Positions 133 to 16,800 of a DNA stretch of 17,376 bases are shown in pieces. Source of the DNA: a virus (lineage: Duplodnaviria; Heunggongvirae; Uroviricota; Caudoviricetes). The notes under the pieces were generated by a model. That model searched no databases. It was not told where the DNA came from and saw only the letters and a program-made list of their open reading frames with translations. The stretch covers positions 1 through 17,376 of the IMG/VR virus record IMGVR_UViG_2703718846_000005; one strand, written 5' to 3'. Both the position numbers and the translations under genes were made by a program. The first letter of the stretch is position 1. Each line of letters opens with the position of its first letter.

Positions 133-134
133 AT

Positions 135-311: not shown

Positions 312-324
312 TGGAGTTAATGTT

Positions 325-639: not shown

Positions 640-965
640 ATCAGATTAACTGTCAGGCACTGCGTGAGGCGGCAGAAGCAATAAAAACAGCAGCCACACC
701 ACAAAAATTGCTGGCATTTCGTATGAAAGCCACACCGCAGGTTGTGCTGGCTTTGCTGGATGAGCTGGAAGCCAGAGACAAACGCATTGCAGAGATGGAA
801 GTAAGGGATGTGCAGTTACCGACTTGCTATGAGCCTCGATATGGTCATCCGATAAATACTGATGAGCGATGCGTCATGATACCCAGTGAGCATGGACGCT
901 GGCTTTATCTGGCTGACTTAGAGCATGCACTACGAGTGGCAGGTATTCGCATCAAAGGAGAGTGA
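636..965 (+). CDS. Hypothetical phage protein (possibly Ead/Ea22-like)
   Basis: GTG start overlapping upstream stop (GTGA, translational coupling); N-terminal ..QALREAAEA.. helical region reminiscent of Ead/Ea22-like prophage proteins (from memory, unverified). Confidence 0.5.
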   Translation: MNQINCQALREAAEAIKTAATPQKLLAFRMKATPQVVLALLDELEARDKRIAEMEVRDVQLPTCYEPRYGHPINTDERCVMIPSEHGRWLYLADLEHALRVAGIRIKGE

Positions 966-966
966 C

Positions 967-1323
967 GTGGAAATAACCCCAGAAGATGAGTCCGGGAATA
1001 TTGTTTTATTTCCGGTAAAAGAGGATGACCCACGTAATCAGGTGAATTTTCTTTATGAGCCATCGGAAAGACCATACTGCCATCACGCTTCTGTCCGGGT
1101 TGACGAAAAAGAGCGTCAGGTCCGCTGTAAAATCTGCGGTGCAGTTGTGGAGCTGTTTGACTGGATGCTCTCAGTGGCGAAAAGAGAAACCAGACTGGCA
1201 GATGATGTAAAACAATTGCGTCAGGAGGAACGGGAAAGACGTAAAAATATAGAAAAGCTAATTCAGATTGAGCGTAATGTGAAAGCGCGGATACGCAGGG
1301 CGACAAAACTTAGCCCAGAATAA
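967..1323 (+). CDS. Hypothetical phage protein with Cys-x17-C-x2-C motif and basic coiled-coil C-terminus
   Basis: GTG 967 one nt after upstream TGA, AAAGGAG at 954-960; in frame with ORF 925..1323. Confidence 0.5.
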   Translation: MEITPEDESGNIVLFPVKEDDPRNQVNFLYEPSERPYCHHASVRVDEKERQVRCKICGAVVELFDWMLSVAKRETRLADDVKQLRQEERERRKNIEKLIQIERNVKARIRRATKLSPE

Positions 1324-1413
1324 TCAACATTATTATTGAAAATATAATCCTTAACCGGAGGGATTTCTGCACCCTCAGAACATCAGGAGGCCGCCCGAAA
1401 TGGCGGTAAGACA

Positions 1414-1587
1414 ATGCGAAAAATCAAAATAGTTATCGAAACGAGGATTGTTGGTAACGTGCGTGAAGATGTATTTGAAGTGGATGATGACGCGACTCCT
1501 GAGGAAATAGAAAACGAGGCAATTGATGTTTTCTTTAATCACTGCAATTACTCAATTTACGAAATAAAAGACGAAGTGGAAGAGTAA
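1414..1587 (+). CDS. Small acidic hypothetical protein (57 aa)
   Basis: ATG 1414 to TAA 1585-1587 (MRKIKIVIETRIVGNVREDVFEVDDD...); below the 60-aa cutoff of the ORF track; stop abuts next start (TAAATG). Confidence 0.4.
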   Translation: MRKIKIVIETRIVGNVREDVFEVDDDATPEEIENEAIDVFFNHCNYSIYEIKDEVEE

Positions 1588-1950
1588 ATGGCGACTTTGA
1601 CCAAAGAAGAACGGTTTACCAAAGAGCAGTTAATAGCCCACGCAGAGGAGGCTATTGAATCACAGAGACTGTGCATACCAGGCACAATCGACCATGACCT
1701 CATTCGCGCATATAAGATGGATATTGCTGTTCTGGAAATTGCACTGCAATCGCTGGCAGCAGCGCCAGTTGGTAAATTTTATGAATACAAACCAGTGGGA
1801 TATCAGCGTCTGGTCGATGAGTTAACCATGCTGGTAAAGCAGTTAATCTGGCAACTGAGGAAAGCGAAGCCAGACTGCAAATTACCGGATAAGGCGATGA
1901 GTTATCTGGAGCGGAACGGACTGATAAGCGTGGAGGATATTTTACGATGA
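1588..1950 (+). CDS. Hypothetical phage protein (120 aa)
   Basis: ORF track; ATG directly after upstream stop; stop overlaps next ATG (ATGA). Confidence 0.55.
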
Positions 1951-2030
1951 CCTGGCCTGAAGCATTCACAACGGCAGGAATTGCAATGGCGGTGGCGCTG
2001 GTGGTGTATTCGATTTGCCGCTGGGGATAA
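1947..2030 (+). CDS. Small membrane peptide (27 aa), hypothetical
   Basis: ATGA overlap with upstream stop; hydrophobic [27 protein letters not shown]; followed by strong terminator. Confidence 0.3.
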
Positions 2031-2036
2031 CAAACA

Positions 2037-2066
2037 AAAACCCCGGATTGACGGTCCGGGGTTTTT
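2037..2066 (+). terminator. Rho-independent terminator closing the early small-ORF operon
   Basis: CCCCGGA-ttgacgg-TCCGGGG hairpin followed by TTTTT. Confidence 0.8.
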
Positions 2067-2289
2067 GAAGGAAACAAACAGAAACAACAATTGCCGTTAT
2101 CTGTTGCCACCAATGACAAGTAAACGTATCTCAGGCGAGCGCATTGCGCCGTTCTGACGCGGATACATTAGCCTGGGCAGAAGGTTCTGGAAATAAAAAA
2201 TAGCGTTTTCTTATCGGTGTCGGTAAGATTGTTGCGGGTGCTTGAGGCTGTCTGCCTCGGGCATGCCACTGTAAGGCAGACAGAGAAAA

Positions 2290-2356
2290 GCCCCAGTTAA
2301 CATTACGCGTCCTGCAAGACGCTTAACATTAATCTGAGGCTCAATCTATGAACGGC
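2290..2356 (-). ncRNA. sok: Sok-like antisense RNA (type I antitoxin) with its promoter
   Basis: Minus-strand promoter TTGCCT-17 nt-TAACCT (plus coords 2391-2386 and 2368-2363), matching my recollection of the R1 sok promoter TTGCGC-17-TATCCT; transcript would be antisense to the mok start region. Ends are approximate. Confidence 0.45.
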
Positions 2357-2560
2357 AAATCTAGGTTAGCCTCTTACGTGCCGAAAGGCAAGGAGAAGCA
2401 GGCTATGAAGCAGCAAAAGGCGATGTTAATCGCCCTGATCGTCATCTGTTTAACCGTCATTGTGACGGCACTGGTAACGAGGAAAGACCTCTGCGAGGTA
2501 CGAATCCGAACCGGCCAGACGGAGGTCGCTGTCTTCACAGCTTACGAACCTGAGGAGTAA
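2348..2560 (+). CDS. mok-like upstream reading frame, in frame with hok (70 codons)
   Basis: ATG 2348 opens a frame that contains the hok ATG 2405 and shares its stop; position matches mok of hok/sok loci. Confidence 0.4.
   Translation: MNGKSRLASYVPKGKEKQAMKQQKAMLIALIVICLTVIVTALVTRKDLCEVRIRTGQTEVAVFTAYEPEE
2405..2560 (+). CDS. hok: Hok/Gef-family type I toxin (51 aa)
   Basis: MKQQKAMLIALIVICLTVIVTALVTRKDLCEVRIRTGQTEVAVFTAYEPEE: single TM helix plus conserved C-terminal Hok motif; I recognise it as HokD/RelF-like; GGAGAAG SD upstream. Confidence 0.85.
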   Translation: MKQQKAMLIALIVICLTVIVTALVTRKDLCEVRIRTGQTEVAVFTAYEPEE

Positions 2561-2628
2561 GAGACCTGGCGGGGGAGAAATCCCTCGCCACCTCTGATGT
2601 GTCAGGCATCCTCAACGCACCCGCACTT

Positions 2629-2650
2629 AACCCGCTTCGGCGGGTTTTTC
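2629..2650 (+). terminator. Terminator at hok mRNA 3' end (copy 1 of 20-bp repeat)
   Basis: AACCCGC-ttcg-GCGGGTT hairpin followed by TTTT. Confidence 0.7.
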
Positions 2651-2717
2651 GTCGCATTATGAGGTTGTAATTTTAGCTACCATTAGACTATCCTAAGGAT
2701 CTCAAACAGATCTATTT

Positions 2718-2735
2718 TGCATCAAATTTGGTGCA
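2718..2735 (+). promoter_or_regulatory. Near-perfect 18-bp palindrome, candidate operator upstream of the Doc module
   Basis: TGCATCAAATTTGGTGCA (16/18 symmetric) about 40 bp upstream of ATG 2776; adjacent AGATCT-centred imperfect repeat. Confidence 0.4.
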
Positions 2736-2775
2736 TGGCTTTGCCAATAATCGGAAAACAAAAGGACTCATTAGT

Positions 2776-2955
2776 ATGAGCTGCCCACTCAAAAAACACA
2801 CGCGGTTGAGTATTCCGCCTCGCGATAAAAGCGTTGTGGCAGTCCCTCGCCCAGCGATTGATGAAAACTGCGCACATCGTGAACAAGTGAAAAATGCTTT
2901 TGATTTCGGTTTTTCTCGTTATGAGAAAGCCATGGAAGAACTTTCAAAAGTGTAA
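2776..2955 (+). CDS. Small protein (59 aa), candidate antitoxin partner of Doc
   Basis: ATG 2776 with AAGGA 10 nt upstream; stop 18 nt before doc start; position typical of an antitoxin, but sequence is not a recognisable Phd/YefM. Confidence 0.4.
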   Translation: MSCPLKKHTRLSIPPRDKSVVAVPRPAIDENCAHREQVKNAFDFGFSRYEKAMEELSKV

Positions 2956-2973
2956 TGATGGGTATTGTGCTCT

Positions 2974-3459
2974 ATGGCTGAGATTGTTGAAGGAGTGCAT
3001 TACCTTACGGTTGATGATCTTGTTGAAATCAATCGTTCCCTAATTGAATTACAGACGCCAGATGAGCCCGTTGGTGTTCTGAGTCCAGATAACTTAAGTT
3101 CTTCTCAGGCCCGTCCCAGCATGGTTCGATGGTATGAACAGACTAATGACATGTTTGTACTGGCATCGGTATTGATTGAAAGTCTGATTCAGAATCATCC
3201 GTTTGCTAATGCGAACAAACGAACAGCTATGATGGCTGGTTACGTCTTCTTGTTGTTGAATGGCTATGAGTTAACAGCACCAGGCGATGAAATCGTGGAA
3301 ATGGCAGAGGGACTGGCCTGCAAAACCTATACTCGAGAAGATCTCGAGAACTGGTTGTGTTATTGGTCTCGCGCGTATGACAGCCGGGAATTATGTAAAA
3401 CAGGCGCAACTATTGTTTTGTATGAAACTATCAAGCTTAAAATAGAACAGCAAAACTAA
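2974..3459 (+). CDS. doc: Doc (death-on-curing) family toxin, Fic fold
   Basis: Contains HPFANANKRTA, matching the Doc motif HxFx(D/N)(A/G)NKR; size about 160 aa; start could be TTG 2965 or ATG 2974. Confidence 0.8.
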   Translation: MAEIVEGVHYLTVDDLVEINRSLIELQTPDEPVGVLSPDNLSSSQARPSMVRWYEQTNDMFVLASVLIESLIQNHPFANANKRTAMMAGYVFLLLNGYELTAPGDEIVEMAEGLACKTYTREDLENWLCYWSRAYDSRELCKTGATIVLYETIKLKIEQQN

Positions 3460-3475
3460 AGGCGCTTCCAATGAA

Positions 3476-3500
3476 AACCCGCTTCGGCGGGTTTTGTTTT
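3476..3500 (+). terminator. Terminator after doc (copy 2 of 20-bp repeat)
   Basis: AAACCCGC-ttcg-GCGGGTTTTGTTTTTT; the 20 nt AACCCGCTTCGGCGGGTTTT are identical to 2629-2648. Confidence 0.7.
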
Positions 3501-3574
3501 TTCCGGGCATTCTGGTTTACAATCTGCACGCCAGCCTGAACAACTGGCACCTGCTGCGCCAGCAGAGAAAACAG

Positions 3575-3853
3575 ATGGCGCACAAGACCAAATTACACAA
3601 TTCTGATAATTCAGCCGCTTTTGCCAGCAGGCACGGGCGGCGTTCTCATGTATTCAAATCTGACTGGTACCAGCATCCCCCATGCACTGAAGAACAGGCC
3701 GAATGGCTGATTCAGTGTTACGGCAGGCGCGGATACGAGGTTAAGAAAGCCCTCAGCCTCGATTATCGTCACTGGATAATCTCTGTCAGGCTCCCTTATT
3801 CCGAACGCCCACCACACCCGTCCCGCACATTCCAGCAACGGATCTGGAGGTAA
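3575..3853 (+). CDS. Hypothetical protein (92 aa)
   Basis: ATG 3575 inside ORF 3494..3853; TACAAT -10-like element at 3515-3520; stop TAA overlaps the GGAGG SD of the next gene. Confidence 0.4.
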   Translation: MAHKTKLHNSDNSAAFASRHGRRSHVFKSDWYQHPPCTEEQAEWLIQCYGRRGYEVKKALSLDYRHWIISVRLPYSERPPHPSRTFQQRIWR

Positions 3854-3854
3854 C

Positions 3855-4904
3855 GTGCGGGTATTACTTCGACCTGTTCCGGTACCGGAACTCGGGCTGG
3901 TGGTCCTTAAGCCTGGTCGTGAATCCATGCAGGTATTTCATAACCCTCGAGTGCTGGTGGAGCCGGAACCGAAAAGCATGCGCGGTCTGCCGTCCGGAGT
4001 TGTTCCTGCTGTTCGCCAGCCGCTGGCGGAAGATAAATCATTACTGCCATTTTTCAGCGATGAGCGGGTGATTCGTGCTGCTGGCGGCGCTGGCGCACTG
4101 TCTGACTGGCTGTTGCGTCATGTCAAATCCTGCCAGTGGCCTCATGGTGACTATCATCACAGTGAAACCGTCATACATCGTTACGGTACCGGCGCAATGG
4201 TGTTGTGCTGGCACTGTGACAACCAGCTGCGTGACCAGACATCCGAATCACTCGGGCAGCTTGCTCAACAAAATCTGACAGCCTGGATGATTGACGTCAT
4301 ACGCCATGCAATGAATGGCACACAGGAGCGGGAATTATCGCTGGCTGAACTGTACTGCTGGGCTGCTGTAAATGATGTAGTGGATGCCATGACCGAAAAT
4401 ATGGCGCGTCGAATCCTGAAGCTTCCGGGTGAAAAAATCCACTCAGTATACCGCGAGAGTAACATCATACCGGGAGAACAGACAGCCACCAGCATACTGA
4501 AGCAGCGCACAAAAAATTTTGCGCCGTTGCCTCACGCCCACCAGCAACAGAACCCACCACAGGAAAAGACGGTTGTAAGTATCACAGTTGATCCGGAGTC
4601 ACCGGAATCATTCATGAAGCGGCCTAAACGTCGCCGCTGGGTGAATGAGAAATACACGCGCTGGGTAAAGACACAGCCGTGTACGTGTTGTGGTAAGCCA
4701 GCAGACGATCCCCATCACCTGATTGGTCACGGTCAGGGCGGAATGGGGACAAAAGCCCACGATATTTTTACGTTGCCGCTGTGTCGGGAACATCACAACG
4801 AACTTCATGCAGATCCGCAGGCGTTCGAAGAAAAGCATGGTTCTCAGGTTGATTTAATTTTTCGTTTTCTTGATCACGCCTTTGCAACTGGCGTACTCGG
4901 ATAA
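3855..4904 (+). CDS. DUF968-like prophage protein with C-terminal HNH-type Cys/His motif
   Basis: GTG 3855 with GGAGG SD; C-terminus CTCCGKPADDPHHLIGHGQGGMGTKAHDIFTLPLCREHHNELH; resembles Qin YdfU-type proteins (from memory). Confidence 0.65.
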   Translation: MRVLLRPVPVPELGLVVLKPGRESMQVFHNPRVLVEPEPKSMRGLPSGVVPAVRQPLAEDKSLLPFFSDERVIRAAGGAGALSDWLLRHVKSCQWPHGDYHHSETVIHRYGTGAMVLCWHCDNQLRDQTSESLGQLAQQNLTAWMIDVIRHAMNGTQERELSLAELYCWAAVNDVVDAMTENMARRILKLPGEKIHSVYRESNIIPGEQTATSILKQRTKNFAPLPHAHQQQNPPQEKTVVSITVDPESPESFMKRPKRRRWVNEKYTRWVKTQPCTCCGKPADDPHHLIGHGQGGMGTKAHDIFTLPLCREHHNELHADPQAFEEKHGSQVDLIFRFLDHAFATGVLG

Positions 4905-4916
4905 AAGAGGTTACTG

Positions 4917-5291
4917 ATGGGGATAGAATTTGTTTTGCCTTACCCGCCGACGGTAAACACCTACTGGCGACGCCGTGGCAGCACATATTTTATATCGGAA
5001 GCCGGTAAGCGTTATCGCCGTGATGTGGCACTTATAGTTCGCCAGCAGAGGCTGAAATTAAACCTGTCCGGAAGGCTGGCGATAACGGTTATTGCCGAGC
5101 CTCCGGATAAGCGCCGTCGTGATCTGGACAATATCCTGAAAGCGCCACTGGATGCACTGACACATGCGGGGTTGCTCATAGACGATGAGCAGTTTGATGA
5201 AATCAATATTGTGCGCGGTCAGCTCGTTCCTGGTGGGCGGCTGGGCGTGAAGATTTACGAAATAATGCATGACGGGCAGGTCCAAAAATGA
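4917..5291 (+). CDS. rusA: Holliday junction resolvase RusA
   Basis: ..RRRDLDNILKAPLDALTHAGLLIDDEQ.. matches the RusA catalytic region; AAGAGG SD; stop overlaps Q start (ATGA). Confidence 0.9.
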   Translation: MGIEFVLPYPPTVNTYWRRRGSTYFISEAGKRYRRDVALIVRQQRLKLNLSGRLAITVIAEPPDKRRRDLDNILKAPLDALTHAGLLIDDEQFDEINIVRGQLVPGGRLGVKIYEIMHDGQVQK

Positions 5292-6109
5292 AACTGGAAG
5301 ATTTACCGAAATACTATTCCCCAAAATCGCCAGGCCTGACTGATGTATCCGCCTCGACGTCAAAAGATGCACTGAGTATCACTGATGTGATGGCTGCGCA
5401 GGGGATGACACAGAACCGGGCTGAGATGGGATTTTCTGCGTTCCTGGGGAAAATGGGTATTAGTATGAATGACAGGGTGCGGGCAACAGAATTACTGACA
5501 GATTATGCATTAAGTCAGTGCGATCGTGTGGCGGCGTTAAGGAAACTTCCGGCAGAAATAAAACCGGCAGTGATGCGTATTATGGCTTCGTATGCTTTTG
5601 AGGATTATGCCCGCAGCGCAGCGAGTAAAAAGCAGTGCCCTTGTTGCCATGGGGAAAAATTTATTGAAAGCGAAGTTTTTACAAACAAGGTTCAGTATCC
5701 GGATGGTAAGCCGCCAGTATGGGCAAAGTGTACAAAAGGCGTGTATCCGTCTTACTGGGAAGAATGGAAAAAAATCCGGGAGGTGGTGAAAGTTTCCTGT
5801 CCTGAATGTAAAGGGAAGGGGGAGATCTCCACTGCCTGTAAAGACTGCCGTGGGCGTGGTGTTGCCATTCATCGTGAAGAGTCAGAAAAACGGGGTATGC
5901 CTGTTATCAGGGGCTGCCGGCGTTGTGGCGGTCGTGGCTATGAAAGACTGCCATCAACGGAGGCATTTAATGCCATATGCAAAGTGACGAGTGCTATCAC
6001 GCTTGATACATGGAAAAAATCAGTGAAACGCTTTTACGATACGTTGGTGGTTCGGTTTGACATTGAAGAGGCATGGGCGGAGCGGCAGTTAAAGATGGTA
6101 ACGCGATAG
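5288..6109 (+). CDS. Late-gene antiterminator Q (Phage_antitermQ-like) with four CxxCxGxG zinc-finger repeats
   Basis: N-terminus MKLEDLPKYYSPKSP typical of Q antiterminators of E. coli prophages; sits immediately upstream of the late promoter. Confidence 0.8.
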   Translation: MKLEDLPKYYSPKSPGLTDVSASTSKDALSITDVMAAQGMTQNRAEMGFSAFLGKMGISMNDRVRATELLTDYALSQCDRVAALRKLPAEIKPAVMRIMASYAFEDYARSAASKKQCPCCHGEKFIESEVFTNKVQYPDGKPPVWAKCTKGVYPSYWEEWKKIREVVKVSCPECKGKGEISTACKDCRGRGVAIHREESEKRGMPVIRGCRRCGGRGYERLPSTEAFNAICKVTSAITLDTWKKSVKRFYDTLVVRFDIEEAWAERQLKMVTR

Positions 6110-6112
6110 TGT

Positions 6113-6143
6113 TGTTGATTTTTCCCGAATCTGTGGTAAATTC
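6113..6143 (+). promoter_or_regulatory. pR'-like late promoter (extended -10), presumed qut region
   Basis: TTGATT (6116-6121), 16-nt spacer, TGgTAAATT extended -10 (6134-6143), immediately after Q stop; small hairpin CGCCC-taacgat-GGGCG at 6144-6160 just downstream. Confidence 0.4.
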
Positions 6144-6190
6144 GCCCTAACGATGGGCGTTTTGTGCCTGACGTTAGAAGAATTTTTACA

Positions 6191-6217
6191 ACCCGCCACC
6201 GAGCGGGTTTTTTATTG
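6191..6217 (+). terminator. tR'-like terminator of short late leader RNA
   Basis: CCCGC-caccgag-CGGG followed by TTTTTT, about 50 nt downstream of the predicted late start. Confidence 0.65.
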
Positions 6218-6336
6218 CCCGAAAAACGGTACAGAACATTAAACGCGCTGGTGGTTACGAATACCGGTCTTTCAGCTTGTATTTTTGTAAATCGATATAT
6301 ACTTATCTTGTGACCAGTAATGTCAGGGCAATTGAT

Positions 6337-7080
6337 ATGAATGAAGCCTGTTCTGTTGTTTTTGTTCATTCCCCGTTTGTTGTGCTCTTTGAAGGAAAAG
6401 AGCTCTCTCTTGAAAGTGGTAGTGCACTTCTTGTCAGGGGGGGAGCTGGATCGTTATTGCCCTTTTCGGAATGTTTTCGGCGAATAAGTCTCAGTGAATC
6501 GACAATTAGCCGTTACCTGTTGTGTGGAGACGAAAAACAGGATGTAGTTTTAGTCCGGCAAATACCACGATATCTTTGCGTGAGTTTTCCCAAGGCAGAA
6601 TTGATGGGCATCCTGATTGATTATCTTTGTGAGGAAAAGATTCATACGGACAATTTAGCGGAAATGCTTTCCTTTTCGTGTCTGGCGTTTTTCTCATCAG
6701 AGAAAATGTTTTCGTCGTTTCTGACCGCGTGTATTAGCAATATTAGTGACAGGCTTAGTGCATTGTTTCGTACGGACATTGCAGCAAACTGGACTCTGAG
6801 AGATGTGTCTTCGCGGTTATGTATCAGTGAAAGTTTGTTAAAAAAAAGACTGAAAGAAGAAGGCACCTGTTTCAGTGAGTTGTTGCTTACAGAGAGAATG
6901 AGAATGGCAGCAATGCTGTTGAATCAATCTCGTTGCGCCATCAACAGAATCGCTGCTCAGTGCGGCTATAATTTTACATCTTATTTTATCAGCGTATTCA
7001 GGAGTTATTTTGGTGTTACACCGGCAGGTTACAGGATGGCTGCATTCAATGAGATGAGTTTAAGTGTTACTCAAGAATAA
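6337..7080 (+). CDS. AraC/XylS-family transcriptional regulator (AppY/EnvY/GadX-like), AT-rich moron
   Basis: C-terminal dual HTH (..LLKKRLKEEGTCFSELLLTERMRMAAMLL..IAAQCGYNFTSYFISVFRSYFGVTPAGYR); N-terminus MNEACSVVFV resembles AppY-type regulators; visibly AT-richer than flanks. Confidence 0.85.
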   Translation: MNEACSVVFVHSPFVVLFEGKELSLESGSALLVRGGAGSLLPFSECFRRISLSESTISRYLLCGDEKQDVVLVRQIPRYLCVSFPKAELMGILIDYLCEEKIHTDNLAEMLSFSCLAFFSSEKMFSSFLTACISNISDRLSALFRTDIAANWTLRDVSSRLCISESLLKKRLKEEGTCFSELLLTERMRMAAMLLNQSRCAINRIAAQCGYNFTSYFISVFRSYFGVTPAGYRMAAFNEMSLSVTQE

Positions 7081-7102
7081 TTGAATTTTGCACTCATTGA
7101 AA

Positions 7103-7131
7103 AAGGCTCGCTCCGGCGGGCCTTTTTCATA
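7103..7131 (+). terminator. Terminator after the AraC-family gene
   Basis: GGCTCGC-tccg-GCGGGCC hairpin (one mismatch) followed by TTTTTC. Confidence 0.5.
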
Positions 7132-7264
7132 TCTGCGCCACGCCCGGCGCACATCAAAAAACCACAGAGCCTTTCAGGGGGGAGCTTACGGGATGGTCAG
7201 TGTGACTTTCTCTGTGGGCTGCTCATCCCGGGGCGAGGCTCACCCACTAAAAGGAAAAGTCACG

Positions 7265-7690
7265 ATGTTTGGTATTTTCAAAAAGAAAACCCGTAAGGCT
7301 ATTACTGAAGTGAAGAAAATGGAGAACCGCGACGCAGTGGAGGCGACCGTCTGGGGCGCGTATTCCATTGCATACGCTGACGACACCTGTGACGCGAAAG
7401 AAATTGCGGTACTGGAGAAAACCATTGCAGCACTTCCTGCCTTTGCGCCGTTCTCCGGTGAGATTGCACAAATGAGTGCAAATATCCGCGCCCGTTATGA
7501 AGCATCACCGCGTTCTGCCAATGCTGAAGCTCTTCGTCAGCTGGCTGATGTTGCAGGTACTGATGATGCAGTTAATGTGCTGTGCCTGTGTCTCGATATT
7601 GCTGACCAGGACGGTATTGGTCCGGATGAAGAAGCACAGCTCAAGAAAATTGCGCAGGCGCTGCAGTTGCCACTGGAGCAGTATCTGTGA
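7265..7690 (+). CDS. TerB-like (tellurite-resistance TerB family) protein
   Basis: ATG 7265 with AAAGGA SD; two TerB-like helical repeats (AYSIAYADDTCDAKEIAVLEKTI and VLCLCLDIADQDGIGPDEEAQLKKIAQAL) resembling TerB as I remember it. Confidence 0.65.
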   Translation: MFGIFKKKTRKAITEVKKMENRDAVEATVWGAYSIAYADDTCDAKEIAVLEKTIAALPAFAPFSGEIAQMSANIRARYEASPRSANAEALRQLADVAGTDDAVNVLCLCLDIADQDGIGPDEEAQLKKIAQALQLPLEQYL

Positions 7691-7845
7691 AAACTGCGCG
7701 CCTTGTGCTGGCTGCCATCCTGTTGTTTCTGGTAGTGGCGGTTGATTTCACCGGGCGCCTGATGTCGGTGCTGGCTGATGGCGTGCTGGTGGTGATGGTA
7801 GTGGTCGTGCTCCGGCCTTTATTCCGGAACAAAAACAACAGCTGA
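7687..7845 (+). CDS. Small membrane peptide (52 aa) translationally coupled to the TerB-like gene
   Basis: GTG overlaps TerB-like stop (GTGA); product VKTARLVLAAILLFLVVAVDFTGRLMSVLADGVLVVMVVVVLRPLFRNKNNS is predicted TM; terminator follows. Confidence 0.4.
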   Translation: MKTARLVLAAILLFLVVAVDFTGRLMSVLADGVLVVMVVVVLRPLFRNKNNS

Positions 7846-7852
7846 TTATTTG

Positions 7853-7882
7853 AGCGGGCATTGAAAGCCCGCTGCATTTTTA
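7853..7882 (+). terminator. Terminator of the TerB-like unit, overlapping the stop of the convergent minus-strand gene
   Basis: AGCGGGC-attgaa-GCCCGCT hairpin followed by TTTTTA; the minus-strand side lacks a U-run. Confidence 0.55.
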
Positions 7883-8560
7883 TTGCTGCTGTTCCTTAAT
7901 GCGTTCCGGTAGCACAAATGCCACTTCAAGGAACAGGCGGAGAAACGCCACAAACTCTTTTGCCTGTTCACTACTGGCCTCGAGTTCGTGCACAGCCTCA
8001 TTGCCTTCCATACGGATTCGGTGAGCCCAGTTTCTCATTGATTCCGTCAGTATGCCGTCCTGCCGTGCCAGTTCAATGCGTGACAGCAGATTGCCTTTTT
8101 CGTACCCCAGGGCACGGAGGGCAACCTCGAGGACGCTACGGCAGCCAACAATGATACGCGGGGCGGTTCTGCCGGACCGAACATCCTCCTGCAACTCAGT
8201 GAAGACTGCGCGAATTTTTTCGGGATAGTGGGGGGAGTCATCGGGCAGCCTGAGTTCAGGATAGATTTTGATGCTTCCCTCAAGTGGAGCATTCAGCACC
8301 CAGGCTTTGTTGTTGATGGCTTTTTTCATGTCCACCAGTTCACTGACTGAACATTCGAATGCGATCATTAATGGGTTGTTACATTCTGTGCAAAAGTCTG
8401 TTGAGTATGCTTTTGCTGATGTTATTTCAGAGGTGCGCGGCTGTTGCACGTAAAGCTTGTTTTCTGTAGCCGGGCGCCTGCTGTGGTACTGGGTGACCTC
8501 ATTCAGAGAAATATGAACCTGATGAAGGCAGTACGGGCATCTAATTTTCAGGGAGTACAT
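7880..8560 (-). CDS. Zn-ribbon plus DUF4145-domain protein (226 aa), candidate defence/abortive-infection-type protein
   Basis: N-terminal CPYC...CTEC zinc ribbon; C-terminus ..RSVLEVALRALG..LLSRIELARQDGILTESMRNWAHRIRMEGNEAVHE..AKEFVAFLRLFLEVAF matches the DUF4145 pattern from memory; start at minus ATG 8560-8558 with AAGAGG SD. Confidence 0.65.
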   Translation of the reverse strand: MYSLKIRCPYCLHQVHISLNEVTQYHSRRPATENKLYVQQPRTSEITSAKAYSTDFCTECNNPLMIAFECSVSELVDMKKAINNKAWVLNAPLEGSIKIYPELRLPDDSPHYPEKIRAVFTELQEDVRSGRTAPRIIVGCRSVLEVALRALGYEKGNLLSRIELARQDGILTESMRNWAHRIRMEGNEAVHELEASSEQAKEFVAFLRLFLEVAFVLPERIKEQQQ

Positions 8561-8767
8561 ATGACCTCTTCGACAGAAGTGATAACTGAATTTGAAAATT
8601 GCATAGCAGATTCTGCCATTGATTCTGTAGCAGCGATAGAACGAAGGTTTGCTGCTGCTCAGACCCGGTATGGTCATGATGCAGCCGTCAAGGGGCTGGC
8701 AATGGCGTTTGTTATTGCGGAGAACCGCCGTCGCTTTATTGAAGCGCAAATGACACTAAAGCAATAA
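8561..8767 (+). CDS. Hypothetical small helical protein (68 aa)
   Basis: ATG 8561 with GGGAG SD 5 nt upstream; tandem terminators follow; start codon abuts the divergent DUF4145 gene start (CATATG). Confidence 0.45.
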   Translation: MTSSTEVITEFENCIADSAIDSVAAIERRFAAAQTRYGHDAAVKGLAMAFVIAENRRRFIEAQMTLKQ

Positions 8768-8780
8768 ATAGCACCACACA

Positions 8781-8841
8781 AAAGGCATCTGTGGGTGCCT
8801 TTGACTGGGTGTTTTTTTACGGGCCGACAGAGGCCCTTTTT
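8781..8841 (+). terminator. Tandem rho-independent terminators
   Basis: AAAGGCA-8 nt loop-TGCCTTT then U-run; GGGCC-gacaga-GGCCC then TTTTTT. Confidence 0.6.
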
Positions 8842-8860
8842 TATTTACAGGAGAAAAAGT

Positions 8861-9250
8861 ATGTCTGAACCCTTATCCGGTTCCGGCACGGCTGCGGCGC
8901 TCGGCGGGGCGACGGTATTCGGGCTGTTTACCGGAACGGATTTCGGGATTGTGTTTGGTGCATTCGCAGGGGCGCTGTTTGTGGCCACGATACCACAGAA
9001 GATTTCTGTCTGGCGTGTGGCAGCGCATTTTCTGGTGTCGTTCATTGTTGGCGTGCTGGGGGCGGATGTGATGGCGTCTTACCTGGTTGAAAAACTGAAT
9101 CTCCACAGCACATCTCTCGACGCACTTTGCGCGGTACTGGTATCGGTGGTGTCGGTGAAGATTCTCTCATTCATCCACCAGCAGGATATCGCATCGCTGG
9201 TATCCGGGCTGTTCTCCCGTCTGCGGGGTGGAGGCGGTAATGTTAAGTAA
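8861..9250 (+). CDS. Putative holin (3 predicted TM segments, 129 aa)
   Basis: AGGAG SD before ATG 8861; three hydrophobic segments, charged C-terminus; first gene of lysis cluster. Confidence 0.6.
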   Translation: MSEPLSGSGTAAALGGATVFGLFTGTDFGIVFGAFAGALFVATIPQKISVWRVAAHFLVSFIVGVLGADVMASYLVEKLNLHSTSLDALCAVLVSVVSVKILSFIHQQDIASLVSGLFSRLRGGGGNVK

Positions 9251-9515
9251 CCTTCCCGGATTACTGAATGTGGTGTTAAGCACGGTTATCGTGCTGACGC
9301 TCTTTTTTTATCGTCGCCGTGATTCCAGACATAAACCGCTGATGTCATGGCTGGCCTGGCTACTGATGCTGCTTTATGCCTTTGCACCACTCAGCTATCT
9401 GTGCGGTCGCCCGTTAGCGGCGAACTGGCTGGCGGTGGGGCTTAATCTGCTGTTCTGCGTGCTGGTGATACGTGCACGCGGGAACGTTTCAAAAATCCTT
9501 TCATTCCGGAGGTGA
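9240..9515 (+). CDS. Second holin/antiholin-like membrane protein (91 aa)
   Basis: ATG 9240 overlaps holin stop; three hydrophobic segments; basic C-terminus. Confidence 0.5.
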   Translation: MLSNLPGLLNVVLSTVIVLTLFFYRRRDSRHKPLMSWLAWLLMLLYAFAPLSYLCGRPLAANWLAVGLNLLFCVLVIRARGNVSKILSFRR

Positions 9516-9517
9516 GC

Positions 9518-9895
9518 ATGTCGGGTAAATTCAGATTCAGTCGTCGCAGTGAAAAAAATCTGGAGGGCGTCAAACCACAGCTGGTTGCTGTTGTTCGCCG
9601 TGCGCTGGAGCTGACGGAGGTTGATTTCGGTATTACGGAAGGTCTGCGCAGTAAGTATCGCCAGAAACAGCTGGTTGCAGAAGGTAAGAGCCAGACCATG
9701 AACAGCCGCCACCTGACCGGTGATGCTGTGGATGTTGTGGCTTATGTTGGCAGCCAGGTGTCATGGGACTGGCCTCTGTACGAGAAAATCGCACAGGCAT
9801 TTAAGCAAGCTGCCGCAGAGCTTGGAACTGCCATCGAATGGGGCGGTGACTGGCGGACGCTTAAAGACGGCCCACATTTTCAATTGAAGCGATAG
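9518..9895 (+). CDS. Endolysin, peptidase M15 family (L-alanyl-D-glutamate peptidase / VanY-like)
   Basis: SRHLTGDAVDV (SxHxxGxAxD zinc-binding motif) and ..WGGDWRTLKDGPHFQL; GGAGG SD before ATG 9518. Confidence 0.8.
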   Translation: MSGKFRFSRRSEKNLEGVKPQLVAVVRRALELTEVDFGITEGLRSKYRQKQLVAEGKSQTMNSRHLTGDAVDVVAYVGSQVSWDWPLYEKIAQAFKQAAAELGTAIEWGGDWRTLKDGPHFQLKR

Positions 9896-9912
9896 CTTGC
9901 AAAACATACAGG

Positions 9913-9934
9913 GCCGCCATGAGCGGCTTTTTTA
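9913..9934 (+). terminator. Terminator after endolysin
   Basis: GCCGC-catga-GCGGC followed by TTTTTT. Confidence 0.65.
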
Positions 9935-9965
9935 TTGCTCAAAAAACGAAAGAACGGAGGTACGT

Positions 9966-10247
9966 ATGTACGCACTGAAAAAAATCACGGTAACTAAAGA
10001 TGGTCGTCAGGTTGAAGAAGTGCATGTTCTGGGGAATATGTATCGTCTGGAGTTCTATCCGCGTGACACTCATCTTGCAGCAAAAATTGAGTATTGCCTG
10101 GGCGGGGATATTCCATGTATTCCGGTAGAAAAAGAGGATGAGGCTTACATTACCACGCTGACCGGAGACACGGTGCGTTGTATCTGTCGCGGTGACAGTA
10201 AAGCCAGGAATGAAATAGCCAGATGCCGCACCCAAGGCAGTAAATAA
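9966..10247 (+). CDS. Hypothetical Cys-containing protein (93 aa)
   Basis: ACGGAGG SD before ATG 9966; bounded by terminators on both sides. Confidence 0.5.
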   Translation: MYALKKITVTKDGRQVEEVHVLGNMYRLEFYPRDTHLAAKIEYCLGGDIPCIPVEKEDEAYITTLTGDTVRCICRGDSKARNEIARCRTQGSK

Positions 10248-10254
10248 AAAACAA

Positions 10255-10287
10255 AACCCCGGCTGCTGGAACAGTCCGGGGTTTTTA
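10255..10287 (+). terminator. Strong rho-independent terminator
   Basis: CCCCGG-13 nt loop-CCGGGG followed by TTTTT. Confidence 0.85.
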
Positions 10288-10377
10288 GTTTTCACGTCAA
10301 AGAGGAAATTGTGAGTAGTGAGTACGGAGAAAATCCTCGTGGGAAAGTATAAAAGATTCTTTTTGAGGTTGTCCATT

Positions 10378-10491
10378 ATGAAAGGTATTGAAGTGGAAAC
10401 TCCCGCGAGCCTTGATTTGACAAGGGCTGCGGCCTTTGCAATTCGCCTTGTGGCGGTCGCTGTTCTGATTTGGGCTGTGCGTTGGTGGTGA
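10378..10491 (+). CDS. Small TM peptide (37 aa)
   Basis: GAGG SD before ATG 10378; MKGIEVETPASLDLTRAAAFAIRLVAVAVLIWAVRWW; stop 1 nt before the lipoprotein start. Confidence 0.35.
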   Translation: MKGIEVETPASLDLTRAAAFAIRLVAVAVLIWAVRWW

Positions 10492-10492
10492 C

Positions 10493-10675
10493 ATGAGCCG
10501 AAAACACTGGACACACAGAATGCCTCGAACGGCGGTGAAATGGGCGCTGATAGCGATACTGGTGCCTTTTTTCCTGGTGGGATGTGTCAGCCTGGATAAA
10601 GCGCGCCAGCTTTTTGATACAGCTTCTCAGGTCTGTGAAATTGTCGACGGTGTTCGGCAGTGTCTGCAGAACTGA
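10493..10675 (+). CDS. Small predicted lipoprotein (60 aa)
   Basis: Basic n-region, hydrophobic core ALIAILVPFFLVG, lipobox LVGC; short mature part with 3 Cys; not proline-rich like lambda Rz1. Confidence 0.5.
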   Translation: MSRKHWTHRMPRTAVKWALIAILVPFFLVGCVSLDKARQLFDTASQVCEIVDGVRQCLQN

Positions 10676-10846
10676 TCGCCTGTAAGAGCAGAATATTTTG
10701 CTGAAAAATGAAGGATGCGCCGGCGTCCGGAAAGCATGAAATTCTGTGTTTGTGGCTACTCAATTAAATAAATTCTTTCTGTCGCCGCGAATACTCAAAT
10801 GTTGATCAGCGCCCGGTGCGGCGACGAGCTTCGATATCAGGAGACG

Positions 10847-11146
10847 ATGATGGAAAAAACAGAAAACAAACCGATTGTAATTGGTGCTGATGCTGCTCCG
10901 TTTAAGTTTGAGTTGTCTCAACTGGTGGAGATGCGCATCAGTGATGAATGGGGGGAGGTTAAAGCCCGCGCGCAGTATGCGGATGGCGAAAACCAGTACT
11001 TGATCCACTACAAAGCAGCTGATGGTCGCGCCACGACGGAGTGGTTTGGTGAGTCAATGCTGGAAGCAACGGAAGATGATCGCCATCCTGGCTGTCCGGT
11101 ATTTGCTGGTATGAAATTGCCGGAAGGTGCGGTTGTTACAGAGTAA
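10847..11146 (+). CDS. Hypothetical acidic protein (about 99 aa)
   Basis: AGGAGA SD (10838-10844) before ATG 10847/10850; in ORF 10799..11146. Confidence 0.5.
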   Translation: MMEKTENKPIVIGADAAPFKFELSQLVEMRISDEWGEVKARAQYADGENQYLIHYKAADGRATTEWFGESMLEATEDDRHPGCPVFAGMKLPEGAVVTE

Positions 11147-11351
11147 CAGACATTACAGCAGCCCTTCAGCGAGGGGCTGCGATAATGTGAGAAATAAAAA
11201 ACCGGTCACAGGGAACAGCCACACAGAACCGGCCGGCGAAGACCGCCAATATCACCCGAGCATCGGTACAACATACTTATGACAATAGACGGTATTGATG
11301 TAAATGCAATGTTATGCATCGACGAAAATAAAAAACCGGCAGGGGAAATCC

Positions 11352-11492
11352 ATGGAAGATTTGCCGGTGGCGAAAGAGGGCCATGTTTTTAACCTTAGTC
11401 GCAGAGTTACGGAGTGCAACTACGAATGCTGCCGGTATATGGCTGAATGGCGTTTCAATGATGTGCATCATGTTATGCGCAAACGAAAGTGA
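11352..11492 (+). CDS. Small Cys-rich ORF (46 aa), doubtful
   Basis: Internal ATG of ORF 11304..11492; weak SD. Confidence 0.2.
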   Translation: MEDLPVAKEGHVFNLSRRVTECNYECCRYMAEWRFNDVHHVMRKRK

Positions 11493-11504
11493 TAATCGCT
11501 CCCG

Positions 11505-11690
11505 TTTTCACGGGTCCTTTCCGGGAGTTGAAACACCGGGGGTCGTAGGACGCGCAAAAACGCGCTATTTATGAAAATTTTCAGGGAACCATGTCCGGTT
11601 TCACTACTGGTTAACTATATGAAAAATATAAAAACAAGCTTTTTGTGAACCGGACATGTACAAAAAACGAACATGCAAACCGGACATGAG
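11505..11690 (+). promoter_or_regulatory. cos site region (cosQ-like, cosN region, cosB with IHF-like A/T tract and three R-like repeats)
   Basis: TTTTCACGGGTCCTTTCCGG and GCTATTTATGAAAATTTTC match the lambda right/left end sequences as I remember them; 10-bp motif ACCGGACATG occurs at 11649-11658 and 11679-11688 and inverted at 11590-11599; lies directly upstream of the Nu1-like gene. Confidence 0.6.
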
Positions 11691-11732
11691 CGGTTTTCTG
11701 ATTGTGAGGTGAGAGTTTTTGCGAGGTGAGTC

Positions 11733-12242
11733 GTGGCTACGCAGACTGAAGTTGCCAGGCATTTGAGTCTGACCGATCGCCAGCTTCGCAGATTGCAGAA
11801 ATTGCCGGGTGCCCCGGTCTCGAATAAACGGGGGCATCATGACTTGGATGCCTGGCGTGATTTTTACATATCGTATCTGAGGAGAAGTAAAAATGATGTG
11901 TCTGATGGTGATAGCGAAGAAGACTATGAAGAAAAATTACTTATCGCCAGATGGAAATTGACTGAAGAACAGGCAATAGCACAGCAATTAAAAAATCAGG
12001 TAACTGAAGGCAGACTTATTGATTCAGGGTTCTGCGTTTTCGCCCTCAGCAAACTGGCGATGGCATTGTCCAGTACGCTTGATTCCATTCCTTTATCCAT
12101 GCAGCGACAGTTCCCGGATTTAACCCCGCGTCATATTGATTATCTGAAAACCCTTATCGCAAAGGGAGCGAATCAGTGTGCGCGGGCAGGGGATAAATTG
12201 CCGGAGTTACTCGATGAATATATCCGAACAACAGTTGAATAA
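11733..12242 (+). CDS. Terminase small subunit (lambda Nu1-like)
   Basis: GTG start with GAGGTGAG SD; ..FCVFALSKLAMALSSTLDSIPLSMQRQFPDLTPRHIDYLK.. closely parallels lambda gpNu1; overlaps the large-subunit start as in lambda. Confidence 0.9.
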   Translation: MATQTEVARHLSLTDRQLRRLQKLPGAPVSNKRGHHDLDAWRDFYISYLRRSKNDVSDGDSEEDYEEKLLIARWKLTEEQAIAQQLKNQVTEGRLIDSGFCVFALSKLAMALSSTLDSIPLSMQRQFPDLTPRHIDYLKTLIAKGANQCARAGDKLPELLDEYIRTTVE

Positions 12243-14574
12243 TATGATGATCGCCGTCACAACCGCATTACAGCCACTAATAAGGGCATTGCCGGTCACG
12301 CCGGTTGAATGGGCTGATCAAAATTATTATCTGCCTAAAGAATCGTCATACGGTGAAGGAGAGTGGAAAACCCTGCCGTTTCAGGTCGCCATTATGAACA
12401 GCATGGGGCACGACAGGATCCGCACTGTTAATCTGATTAAATCGGCGCGTGTGGGTTACACCAAAATGCTGCTGGGCGTGGTCGGGTATTTTATTGAGCA
12501 TAAATCCCGTAACAGCCTGCTCTTCCAGCCGACAGATTCCGCAGCTGAAGATTTTATGAAAGCGCATGTGGAAGCAACGCTCCGGGATGTCCCCAGCCTT
12601 AAAGCGTTATCGCCATGGCTGGGCAGAAAACATCGGGACAACACACTCACCCTGAAGCGTTTTTCCTCCGGCGTGGGGTTCTGGTGCCTGGGGGGGGCCG
12701 CTGCTAAAAACTACCGTGAAAAATCTGTGGATGTGGTCTGCTATGACGAACTCTCCTCGTTTGAACCGGATGTGGAAAAAGAAGGCTCGCCGACGCTGCT
12801 TGGCGATAAACGTATCGAAGGCTCGGTATGGCCTAAATCCATACGCGGCTCAACGCCAAAAATTAAAGGCTCCTGCCAGATTGAGAAAGCGGCGAATGAA
12901 TCTGCGCATTTCATGCGGTTTTATGTCCCTTGCCCTCATTGCGGGGAGGCCCAGTATCTGAAGTTTGGCGATGATGCGACGCCGTTTGGCCTGAAATGGG
13001 AGAAGGGTAAACCCGAAACGGTGTATTACCTGTGTGAACATAATGGCTGTGTGATCCGCCAGTCGGAACTTGACCAGACCGACGGATGCTGGATTTGTGA
13101 CAATACCGGGATGTGGACGCGTGACGGCCTGACATTTTACAGTGCCGGTGATGAGGAAATCCCGCCACCGCGCTCAATTTCGTACCACATCTGGACGGCA
13201 TACAGCCCGTTCACCACCTGGGTACAGATTGTTTATGACTGGCTCGATGCACTGAAGGATCCGAATGGCGTCAAGACGTTCATTAACACCACGCTCGGGG
13301 AGCCCTATGAAGAGGCCGTGGCAGAAAAACTGAGCTTTGAGTTGTTGCTGGAAAAAGTCTGCCACTATGGCGCGCAGGTTCCCCTGCGGGTGGTTTACCT
13401 GACCGCAGGGATAGACTCCCAGAAAGATCGCTATGAAATTTATGTTTGGGGCTGGGCTCCCGGCGAAGAAGCCTTTCTGATTGACAAGCAAATTATCATG
13501 GGGCGACCGGAGGACGAGGACACCCTTAAACGTGTTGATGCGGTGATCCGGAAAAAATACCGCCATGCTGACGGTACTGAAATTTCCATTTCCCGCGTCT
13601 GCTGGGATACCGGTGGTATCGACCAGGACATTGTGTATCAGCGATCCAGAAAACACGGCACTTTTTTTGTGCTTCCCATAAAAGGGGCATCGGTGTATGG
13701 CAAGCCGGTGATCACCATGCCCAAAAAGCGCAACCAGCGTGGTGTGTTTTTGTGTGAGGTGGGCTCCGATACCGTCAAGGAAATGCTGTACGCCCGTTTT
13801 GCCCTGCCGGTGGTTTCTGCCAGTGAAGCAGCTCCGTATACCTTCCGTTTTCCGGATAACCCGGACATTTTTTCGGAAGAAGAGGCGCGTCAAATCGTAG
13901 CGGAAGAACTGGTGGAAAAGGTGGTTAACGGCAGGGTGAAACTGCTGTGGGATAAAAAAGGGCGACGCAACGAAGCCCTCGACTGCCTGGTATATGCTTA
14001 TGCCGCCCTGCGCGTTTCGGTACAGCGGTGGCAACTGGACCTTGAAGCACTGGCGATGGCACGAAAAGATGAGCAGGATGAGGATGATATGAGCATGGAA
14101 GAGATCGCGGCTGCACTGAGTGGAGGATATTCCAGTGCCAGGGCATCCGCCAATGAGTCGTGGCGGTATTTTATGGGAAAACGAAAATTTGTGGCCAGTC
14201 GCCTGGCGTCACAGATGTTTGCCTGCTGGCTGGAGGAAGCCCTTATTCGTGGTGTGATCCGTCCGCCGAAATCCCGTTTCTCATTCTGGGAGGCTCGTTC
14301 CGGGTGGTGCCGTGCCGAGTGGATTGGTGCCGGTCGTATGGCGATTGATGGCCTTAAGGAAGTGCAGGAAGCGGTGATGCGCATTGAAGGCGGCCTGAGT
14401 ACATACGAGAAAGAGCTGGCCCTGATGGGGGATGACTATCAGGAGATTTTCCGCCAGCAGCTACGGGAAACTCAGGAGCGACAGGCTGCCGGTCTTCCGC
14501 GTCCGGTCTGGATAAAGGACGCGTTTCAACAGCAGATCCGACAGACAACGGGAGAAAAAGGCGATGCGCTGTAA
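12214..14574 (+). CDS. Terminase large subunit (lambda gpA-like) fused in frame to the C-terminal part of the portal protein (gpB-like)
   Basis: N-terminus MNISEQQLNN..VEWADQNYYLPKES..GDKRIEGSVWPKSIRGSTPK.. follows lambda gpA for about 637 aa; from about 14128 the frame continues as ..YSSARASANESWRYFMGKRKFVASR..MAIDGLKEVQEAVMRIEGGLSTYEKE.., which matches the lambda portal C-terminus (from memory). Confidence 0.85.
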   Translation: MNISEQQLNNMMIAVTTALQPLIRALPVTPVEWADQNYYLPKESSYGEGEWKTLPFQVAIMNSMGHDRIRTVNLIKSARVGYTKMLLGVVGYFIEHKSRNSLLFQPTDSAAEDFMKAHVEATLRDVPSLKALSPWLGRKHRDNTLTLKRFSSGVGFWCLGGAAAKNYREKSVDVVCYDELSSFEPDVEKEGSPTLLGDKRIEGSVWPKSIRGSTPKIKGSCQIEKAANESAHFMRFYVPCPHCGEAQYLKFGDDATPFGLKWEKGKPETVYYLCEHNGCVIRQSELDQTDGCWICDNTGMWTRDGLTFYSAGDEEIPPPRSISYHIWTAYSPFTTWVQIVYDWLDALKDPNGVKTFINTTLGEPYEEAVAEKLSFELLLEKVCHYGAQVPLRVVYLTAGIDSQKDRYEIYVWGWAPGEEAFLIDKQIIMGRPEDEDTLKRVDAVIRKKYRHADGTEISISRVCWDTGGIDQDIVYQRSRKHGTFFVLPIKGASVYGKPVITMPKKRNQRGVFLCEVGSDTVKEMLYARFALPVVSASEAAPYTFRFPDNPDIFSEEEARQIVAEELVEKVVNGRVKLLWDKKGRRNEALDCLVYAYAALRVSVQRWQLDLEALAMARKDEQDEDDMSMEEIAAALSGGYSSARASANESWRYFMGKRKFVASRLASQMFACWLEEALIRGVIRPPKSRFSFWEARSGWCRAEWIGAGRMAIDGLKEVQEAVMRIEGGLSTYEKELALMGDDYQEIFRQQLRETQERQAAGLPRPVWIKDAFQQQIRQTTGEKGDAL

Positions 14575-16793: not shown

Positions 16794-16800
16794 GTGTTTT

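Follow-up and report, generated by a model that had tools for sequence, protein, structure and literature searches.

In the late region of a prophage, a gene for a TerB-like protein of about 140 residues is followed by a gene for a small hydrophobic peptide whose start codon overlaps the stop codon of the first. Is this pair a new arrangement, and what could its two products do together? We analysed the window, a stretch of 17,376 nucleotides that makes up positions 1 to 17,376 of the IMG/VR record IMGVR_UViG_2703718846_000005, in which the pair occupies positions 7265–7845 of the plus strand.

The gene pair is a copy of tciA-tciB

We compared the two products with those of the tciA-tciB-tciC operon of phage P1 (GenBank AF234172, 70233–70929; genome annotation of Lobocka et al., 2004). 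The larger protein is identical to P1 TciA at 120 of 141 residues (85%, no gaps, E 2e-90), and the 52-residue peptide shows 44% amino acid identity to P1 TciB. In PHROGs the two proteins match phrog_632 ('tellurite resistance', 216 bits) and phrog_1470 ('TciB-like', 85 bits), RefSeq labels the pair 'TerB family protein' and 'DUF3927 family protein', and the order Q-tciA-tciB-holin is annotated in Escherichia phage Fostie and is also present in Klebsiella phage 5 LV-2017. An earlier note on this DNA had regarded the combination of a TerB-like protein with a transmembrane peptide as unrecognised; from these matches it is clear that it is a known and named operon. Judged by sequence similarity, the locus is almost certainly tciA-tciB, a phage accessory operon that received its name in P1, here in a copy with two genes. 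The pair of a TerB-like gene and an overlapping membrane-peptide gene is real and conserved, but the arrangement was already known: it was named about twenty years ago (2004, phage P1) and is annotated automatically wherever it is present. The discovery value of this copy is therefore small, as it is an ordinary representative of a widely annotated operon in the usual lambdoid cargo slot.

The pair was found in 417 of 5426 complete E. coli genomes (about 8%), with up to six matching places per genome, and in 669 plasmid records; among those listed, nearly all were non-mobilizable and about 95–120 kb long, and the plasmid carriers that we inspected were P1-like or pKPHS1-like. It is also present in the N4-like Salmonella phage FSL SP-076, and the genome note of the N4-like coliphage Pollock mentions a tciA homolog as a curiosity. 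The two genes are kept as a unit in four unrelated lifestyles, those of lambdoid prophages, of N4-like phages and of two types of phage-plasmid, P1-like and pKPHS1-type.

The copy in the window and that of P1 have the same gene order and a TciB of the same DUF3927 family, and the stop and start codons overlap in both, although the overlap is GTGA in the window (4 nt, GTG start) and TGATG in P1 (1 nt, ATG start). P1 also has tciC, whereas in the window tciB is followed by a terminator that starts 8 nt past the stop codon, and a tblastn search of the window with P1 TciC found nothing; tciC-like third peptides occur only in some contexts. The window copy lies in the Q-holin late region of a lambdoid prophage, whereas that of P1 belongs to the C1-controlled ban operon. 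There it follows the ban promoters, which are under the control of C1 operators, and the annotation shows no plus-strand promoter of its own (GenBank AF234172). The conserved leader of about 135 nt that precedes the window copy is lacking in P1. In addition, TciA of the window carries the change G40D in its first ADG motif relative to P1.

TciA has a TerB fold

The tciA gene extends from the ATG at 7265 to the TGA at 7690 (plus strand) and encodes a soluble, acidic protein of 141 residues (pI 4.7) with a TerB fold and a basic, disordered N-terminal tail. The TerB-like nature proposed in the earlier note was borne out by an HMM search, in which Pfam TerB (PF05099) matched two stretches of the protein with 29.0 bits (gathering score 24.4, E 1.4e-6), and by the AlphaFold model, an all-helical TerB-like fold whose best matches were TerB-like crystal structures. 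The comparison of folds was needed because a sequence search of PDB chains gave only chance-level matches to polynucleotide phosphorylase; in the NCBIfam library neither TciA nor TciB had a match.

TciA had been described as containing two TerB-like acidic helical repeats. Two acidic motifs, ADDTCDAKE (residues 38–46) and ADQDGIGPDE (residues 113–122), are indeed each located in a helix-loop-helix of the model, but when the two halves of the protein were aligned with each other the score was no better than that of shuffles, so only the motifs and not their origin by repetition can be upheld. Residues E46, E66 and G117 were invariant across 22 diverse relatives. The second motif (A-D-G-x(5)-E type) is intact, whereas the first has an aspartate in place of the near-invariant G40. 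At this residue (7382–7384), which belongs to a putative metal-binding loop, relatives almost always have glycine (ADGTC rather than ADDTC); the aspartate is shared by 14 of 99 loci and is therefore a lineage variant, not an error.

The N-terminal tail (residues 1–20) has a net charge of +6 and no ordered structure in the model. Relatives with as little as 35% identity still have its MFG-F-KK motif; the amphipathic moment of the tail was not significant, since 7% of shuffles reached it. Some gene callers propose a longer tciA product, starting at TTG 7088 or at the in-frame ATG 7193 (165 residues). We rejected it for two reasons. A 1-nt indel among the leader copies breaks the frame, so that an N-terminal extension cannot be conserved, and the homologs, that of P1 included, begin at the position corresponding to 7265, behind a proper Shine-Dalgarno sequence.

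TciB is a conserved hydrophobic peptide

The tciB gene runs from the GTG at 7687 to the TGA at 7845 (plus strand) and encodes a DUF3927 peptide of 52 residues that is predicted to reside in the inner membrane; it scored 51.3 bits with Pfam DUF3927 (PF13064) against a threshold of 25. As the earlier note had it, the GTG of this peptide gene overlaps the stop of the TerB gene, the shared GTGA lying at exactly 7687–7690. TciB is very hydrophobic and basic (GRAVY 1.29, pI 11.6), with hydrophobic runs at residues 6–19 and 25–42. As to its topology, the AF2 model is one continuous helix of residues 2–49 (48 residues, pLDDT 90.5), but the hydrophobic span 6–42, inside which the charged residues D20, R24 and D31 are kept, may also form a hairpin, a tilted helix or an oligomer.

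Among 17 close homologs (69–92% identical) the core VDFTGR..MS..AD.VLV and P44 are invariant, and across the loci the core reads VDFTG[RK]..MS..ADGVLV, with a proline near the C-terminus. This pattern of conservation suggests that TciB is more than a passive anchor. All DUF3927 homologs that we found are stand-alone peptides of about 50 residues, and the sole TerB-DUF3927 'fusion' (P0052) is a one-off frameshift product.

The overlap of the two genes is conserved

We collected 101 loci, of which 80 came from IMG/VR, 14 from GTDB genomes and six were fetched by hand, the window itself being the last. A tciB-like reading frame directly followed or overlapped tciA in 99 of them, so that the peptide gene is conserved among relatives, and the median pairwise Nei-Gojobori dN/dS was 0.05 for tciA and 0.35 for tciB. 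By these ratios both genes are under purifying selection, the peptide less strictly; its constant presence after tciA together with its dN/dS shows that tciB is not a chance reading frame. The stop and start codons overlapped or abutted in 98 of the 101 loci, in 90 cases as GTGA, in one as TTGA, in six as a one-base overlap with ATG (TGATG or TAATG) and in one by abutting. The three exceptions can be ascribed to decay or truncation: tciB was cut by a rearrangement in L065, tciA has a nonsense mutation at codon 22 in L078, and L100 is cut off by the end of its contig. Because close E. coli prophage relatives dominate the sample, fewer of these observations are independent than the counts suggest; the divergent lineages agree with the E. 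coli majority.

A Shine-Dalgarno sequence of tciB, GGAG, is situated at 7675–7678 (plus strand) inside the last tciA codons (Leu-Glu-Gln), 8 nt before the GTG, and a GGAG, GAGG or AGGA core was found at −16 to −4 of tciB in 81 of 98 loci. The core is absent in the P1, pKPHS1, SP-076 and Klebsiella copies, in which the stop-start overlap alone is kept, and this fits coupling of the two genes by termination and reinitiation.

Many two-gene toxin-antitoxin modules have the same layout, in which the gene for an acidic protein comes first and is overlapped by that for a basic hydrophobic peptide, and small phage membrane peptides are often toxic. TciB could thus be a membrane-damaging or division-blocking peptide, similar to hok, holin or Kil products, which is restrained by TciA as an antidote or serves to arrest the host. 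The charged residues kept in its hydrophobic stretch would suit such an activity, and 'inhibition of cell division' in the P1 name points the same way, although that name was given to tciA-tciB by homology only. We nevertheless hold this explanation to be decidedly improbable. Pfam, NCBIfam and PADLOC returned no toxin-antitoxin family, only TerB and DUF3927, and tciB is intact where tciA is inactivated, both in L078 and in the plasmid NZ_CP148543 with its frameshifted TerB gene; these two loci are not decisive, because the loss of coupling could silence tciB.

The plasmid locus (L105; NZ_CP148543.1, a 15.6-kb plasmid of E. coli, positions 1975–2643) carries the leader of the window copy together with a closely related tciB that is intact, while its frameshift-broken TerB gene belongs to another subfamily and is only about 38% identical to that of the window. 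It shows mosaic exchange of the TerB partner and persistence of tciB without an intact tciA.

The pairing extends to distant relatives

A HMMER search of 1.84 billion cluster representatives gave 150 hits at E ≤1e-3 and seven at E ≤1e-30, and on this sequence evidence the close TciA family is narrow and largely enterobacterial. Around it is a wider circle of TerB-like proteins, stand-alone and about 145 residues long, that are 25–40% identical to TciA and share with it the N-terminal MFG-F-KK, E46, E66 and G117.

Three distant relatives were inspected in their contigs. In a metagenomic phage contig (L102, 3001–3795), a TerB-like gene (about 36% identity) is followed with an 8-nt overlap by a DUF3927 peptide gene and then by a second membrane peptide. 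In an element of Vibrio fortis (L101, 3001–3755), a TerB-like gene of about the same identity precedes a gene for a 50-residue hydrophobic peptide without the DUF3927 motif, and it adjoins genes for a T7-like DNA polymerase, a primase-helicase and a ligase. Downstream of the third relative, in a lambdoid contig, no peptide was found. The pairing of a TerB-like protein with a small peptide is old, since in the first two contigs relatives of only about 36% identity also precede a hydrophobic peptide of about 50 residues.

tciAB is bracketed by terminator-like hairpins and has a conserved leader

Upstream of tciA, at 7098–7129 (plus strand), there is a hairpin with flanking A- and T-runs that resembles a bidirectional intrinsic terminator (−23.9 kcal/mol, z −8.05; none of 200 shuffles was as stable). 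Homology to the other prophage copies begins at this hairpin, which looks, from the sequence, as if it closed the preceding AraC-like gene and marked the left edge of the conserved tciAB cassette. The letters of its stem vary across loci while the hairpin and T-run are kept (GGCTCGC/GCGGGCC, GGCTGCGCA/TGCGTGGCC, AAACCCGC/GCGGGTTT).

A second terminator-like hairpin with a T-run (7853–7882, plus strand) lies between tciB and the convergent DUF4145 gene, and closes the tciAB unit, so that the terminator noted previously right after the peptide gene was found again. Its stem at 7853–7873 has seven pairs, six of them G-C, and a loop of seven, and is followed by GCATTTTTAT, the T-run starting 3 nt after the stem (−17.3 kcal/mol, z −1.9). 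In 78 of 98 loci the 90 nt that follow the tciB stop contained a hairpin and T-run. With the two hairpins, tciAB is bracketed by terminator-like structures.

Between the first hairpin and tciA lies a conserved non-coding leader (7130–7264, plus strand), which contains the Shine-Dalgarno sequence AAGGA at 7251–7255, 9 nt before the ATG. This leader of about 135 nt shows 82–97% nucleotide identity in the lambdoid copies, including those of Klebsiella phage 5 LV-2017 and phage Fostie, and in the same copies the synonymous sites of tciA are near saturation (dS about 1.3). Its invariant blocks are AACCACAGAGCCTTTCAGGG, GTGTGACT and CTGTGGGC. Rfam had no match in the leader, and structural evidence for an RNA was weak, with a z of −1.24 for the single-sequence fold and only three compensatory pairs in RNAalifold. 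No sigma-70 promoter was predicted in the leader, or anywhere on the plus strand between Q and tciA. The leader might act as a regulatory RNA that has escaped recognition, as an operator or as an atypical promoter.

These features bear on the explanation that tciAB is lysogenic-conversion or defence cargo, expressed from its own promoter in the lysogen and providing the host with Ter-like resistance to tellurite, pore-forming colicins or other phages. In its favour, the cassette is insulated by terminators on both sides, and the conserved leader could hold a promoter or operator; that no sigma-70 promoter was predicted there speaks against it, while a non-canonical promoter active in lysogens, which the leader might hide, would favour it.

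tciAB lies between the Q gene and the lysis genes

Judged by its gene content, the setting is, as the earlier note had assumed, the late region of a prophage. The prophage is lambdoid, and tciAB is placed in it as cargo after the gene for the late antiterminator Q and before those for lysis. Upstream of Q are a hok/sok locus and genes for a Fic/DOC protein, DUF968 and RusA. The Q gene (5288–6109) is followed by two terminator-like hairpins and then by three cargo units, namely a gene for an AraC-family regulator, tciAB and a convergent gene for a DUF4145 protein. Two holin genes, at 8795 and 9228, come next, and after them M15 peptidase and terminase genes. It is between Q and the holins that lambdoid phages usually accommodate inserted cargo, Shiga-toxin genes among it.

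The position next to the lysis genes raises the possibility that the pair regulates the timing of lysis in the manner of an antiholin. In lambdoid copies tciAB adjoins holins, here being placed immediately upstream of two holin genes, and TciB has two short hydrophobic segments, as small holins and antiholins do. However, in P1, pKPHS1-type plasmids, N4-like phages and the Vibrio element, the pair is found among replication and early genes, away from the lysis genes; the Q-holin interval is where lambdoid cargo is found anyway, and no holin family matches TciB. We rejected the lysis-regulator reading of tciAB because of these non-lambdoid contexts and regard it as extremely improbable.

The same neighbourhood is more favourable to lysogenic conversion, as tciAB adjoins other cargo, the AraC-like regulator and the DUF4145 protein, and has been retained in a prophage that seems to be defective. 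The terminase large subunit gene (12178–14574) is followed almost directly by the gene for a protein with a prophage tail-fibre N-terminal domain (15405–16793). The genes for portal, head and tail thus appear to have been lost, and on this gene order the prophage is probably defective.

Comparison with TerB proteins of known systems

TerB of the terZABCDEF clusters (IncHI2 R478, pKL53-L; PF05099; folds 2OU3 and 2H5N) shares with TciA the family, the fold, a length of about 140–150 residues and a similar N-terminal motif. The sequence relationship is distant: TciA is about 25–40% identical to the stand-alone TerB-like relatives of about 145 residues, and classical TerB falls outside that alignment. 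TerB reportedly interacts with TerC, an integral membrane protein (PMC11003894), and TerB proteins have been described as amphitropic (bioRxiv 10.1101/2025.09.30.679545). Whereas TerB works with its large integral membrane neighbour TerC, the neighbour of TciA is a peptide of 52 residues and the pair is carried by a phage. None of terC, terD, terE, terZ and terA was found in the window, where the neighbours are Q, the AraC-like regulator, the DUF4145 protein and the holins.

TerB domains also occur in the defence systems Shango, Bunzi and Dionysus, in the last of these with membrane and pore-forming partners (bioRxiv 10.1101/2025.09.30.679545). In Dionysus (DinB, the four-TM pore-forming DinC and the TM protein DinA), Shango (SngA) and Bunzi (BnzA), a TerB-like protein is encoded beside genes for membrane proteins, and 'membrane surveillance' has been proposed. 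These systems are host-encoded and comprise at least three genes, with enzymes or large pore formers, whereas tciAB is phage-encoded and has two genes. The earlier note had mentioned a connection to defence systems; it received no direct support, as neither TciA nor TciB matched a defence family in PADLOC-DB 2.0 at E up to 1.

A third parallel is DjlA of the E. coli inner membrane, in which a single TM helix is fused to a TerB-like domain at the cytoplasmic face. By analogy, TciA and TciB could be a split version of this layout. DjlA is one polypeptide with an N-terminal anchor and a C-terminal J-domain, and our comparison of it with the pair is one of layout.

Lysogenic conversion is what the database names imply, and the relationship to TerB speaks for it. 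The ter cluster has been linked to the inhibition of phages and to protection from channel-forming colicins, and the TerB domains of Shango, Bunzi and Dionysus suggest defence. In reviews, tellurite resistance or phage inhibition is likewise suggested for tciAB on the grounds of homology. On the other side, the tellurite-resistance constructs of one study all carry terBCDEF or more (PMC11003894), and terC, terD and terE are absent from the window; PADLOC had no match for either protein. Moreover, the operon is controlled by a repressor in P1, and the N4-like carriers, which we take to be virulent, have no lysogen to convert. The 'tellurite resistance' label of TciA in databases is unsupported, and we consider cargo of this kind unlikely.

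A possible role of the pair during lytic growth

In the literature we found no experimental test of tciA or tciB function. P1 formed plaques as before when tciA, tciB or tciC was knocked down by CRISPRi (PMC10695390), and one subgroup of P1-like phage-plasmids has lost the operon in about half of its members (PMC9603915), so the genes are not essential in P1 and any role of tciAB must be conditional. Peptides of TciA were detected in CsCl-purified P1 preparations (PMC9024508), which indicates that the protein is made during lytic growth.

The explanation that we favour as a whole, and to which we give about even credence, is that TciA and TciB are translationally coupled, form a membrane complex, are expressed in the lytic cycle and have a protective accessory role. 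Ribosomes finishing tciA would re-initiate on tciB, by which the two products would be made together at a fixed ratio. TciB would insert in the inner membrane and recruit or partner TciA at its cytoplasmic face; we infer this partnership from the parallels with TerB and TerC and with the membrane-anchored TerB-like domain of DjlA, the charged tail of TciA also speaks for it, and a complex of the two proteins is rather probable. Transcription would come mainly from Q-modified RNA polymerase reading through the flanking terminators, so that the pair would be made during lytic growth; the C1-repressed operon of P1, carriage by N4-like phages and the position behind Q and terminators, with no sigma-70 promoter predicted, are our reasons for this. 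The complex might then stabilise or condition the membrane of the infected cell until lysis, as an accessory and not an essential function, against threats such as pore-forming colicins, superinfecting phage or membrane-targeting abortive-infection effectors. That the pair has a protective role in the lytic cycle is a tentative proposal, and we lean somewhat against it when it is taken by itself.

A bolder form of this idea is that tciAB is a phage-borne membrane-surveillance or counter-defence device, in which a TerB-domain sensor is tethered by, or gates, a viroporin-like DUF3927 peptide, and which during infection neutralises membrane-depolarising abortive-infection effectors or colicins, or excludes superinfecting phages. 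We consider this joint reading speculative and quite unlikely. If it were true, the TerB domains of Shango, Bunzi and Dionysus would have a phage-side counterpart, and the 135-nt leader would be a dedicated regulatory element. For a TerB-fold protein paired with a membrane peptide of about 50 residues, working out the role could in any case help to explain the TerB domains in anti-phage systems. The best leads are the conserved leader, the occurrence of the pair in N4-like phages and the fact that even relatives of 36% identity show the pairing.

Other genes of the prophage

Some further features of the prophage were noticed in the course of the analysis. The window was covered by any one E. 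coli genome to at most 62%, at about 91–94% identity. The AraC-family regulator upstream of tciA (6277–7080, plus strand) has its own strong terminator; its closest NCBIfam models were YdeO (148 bits, far below the cutoff) and GadX, and it presumably resembles the prophage-encoded acid-resistance regulators of EHEC (PatE/Psr type). The DUF4145 protein (7880–8749, minus strand), whose gene is convergent with tciAB, belongs to phrog_1305 and gave a weak PADLOC match to PD-T7-4 (E 5.5e-4, 17.5 bits), so it may be single-gene defence cargo; its gene is kept beside tciAB only in the five closest E. coli matches (H1–H5). In the early region, Rfam detected a sok antitoxin RNA at 2236–2410 (plus strand, 110 bits), indicating a hok/sok type I toxin-antitoxin locus, and in a syntenic E. 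coli prophage hokD is annotated at this position. Among the nin-region genes, a Fic/DOC-family protein is encoded at 2965–3459 (plus strand; Pfam, 46.5 bits).
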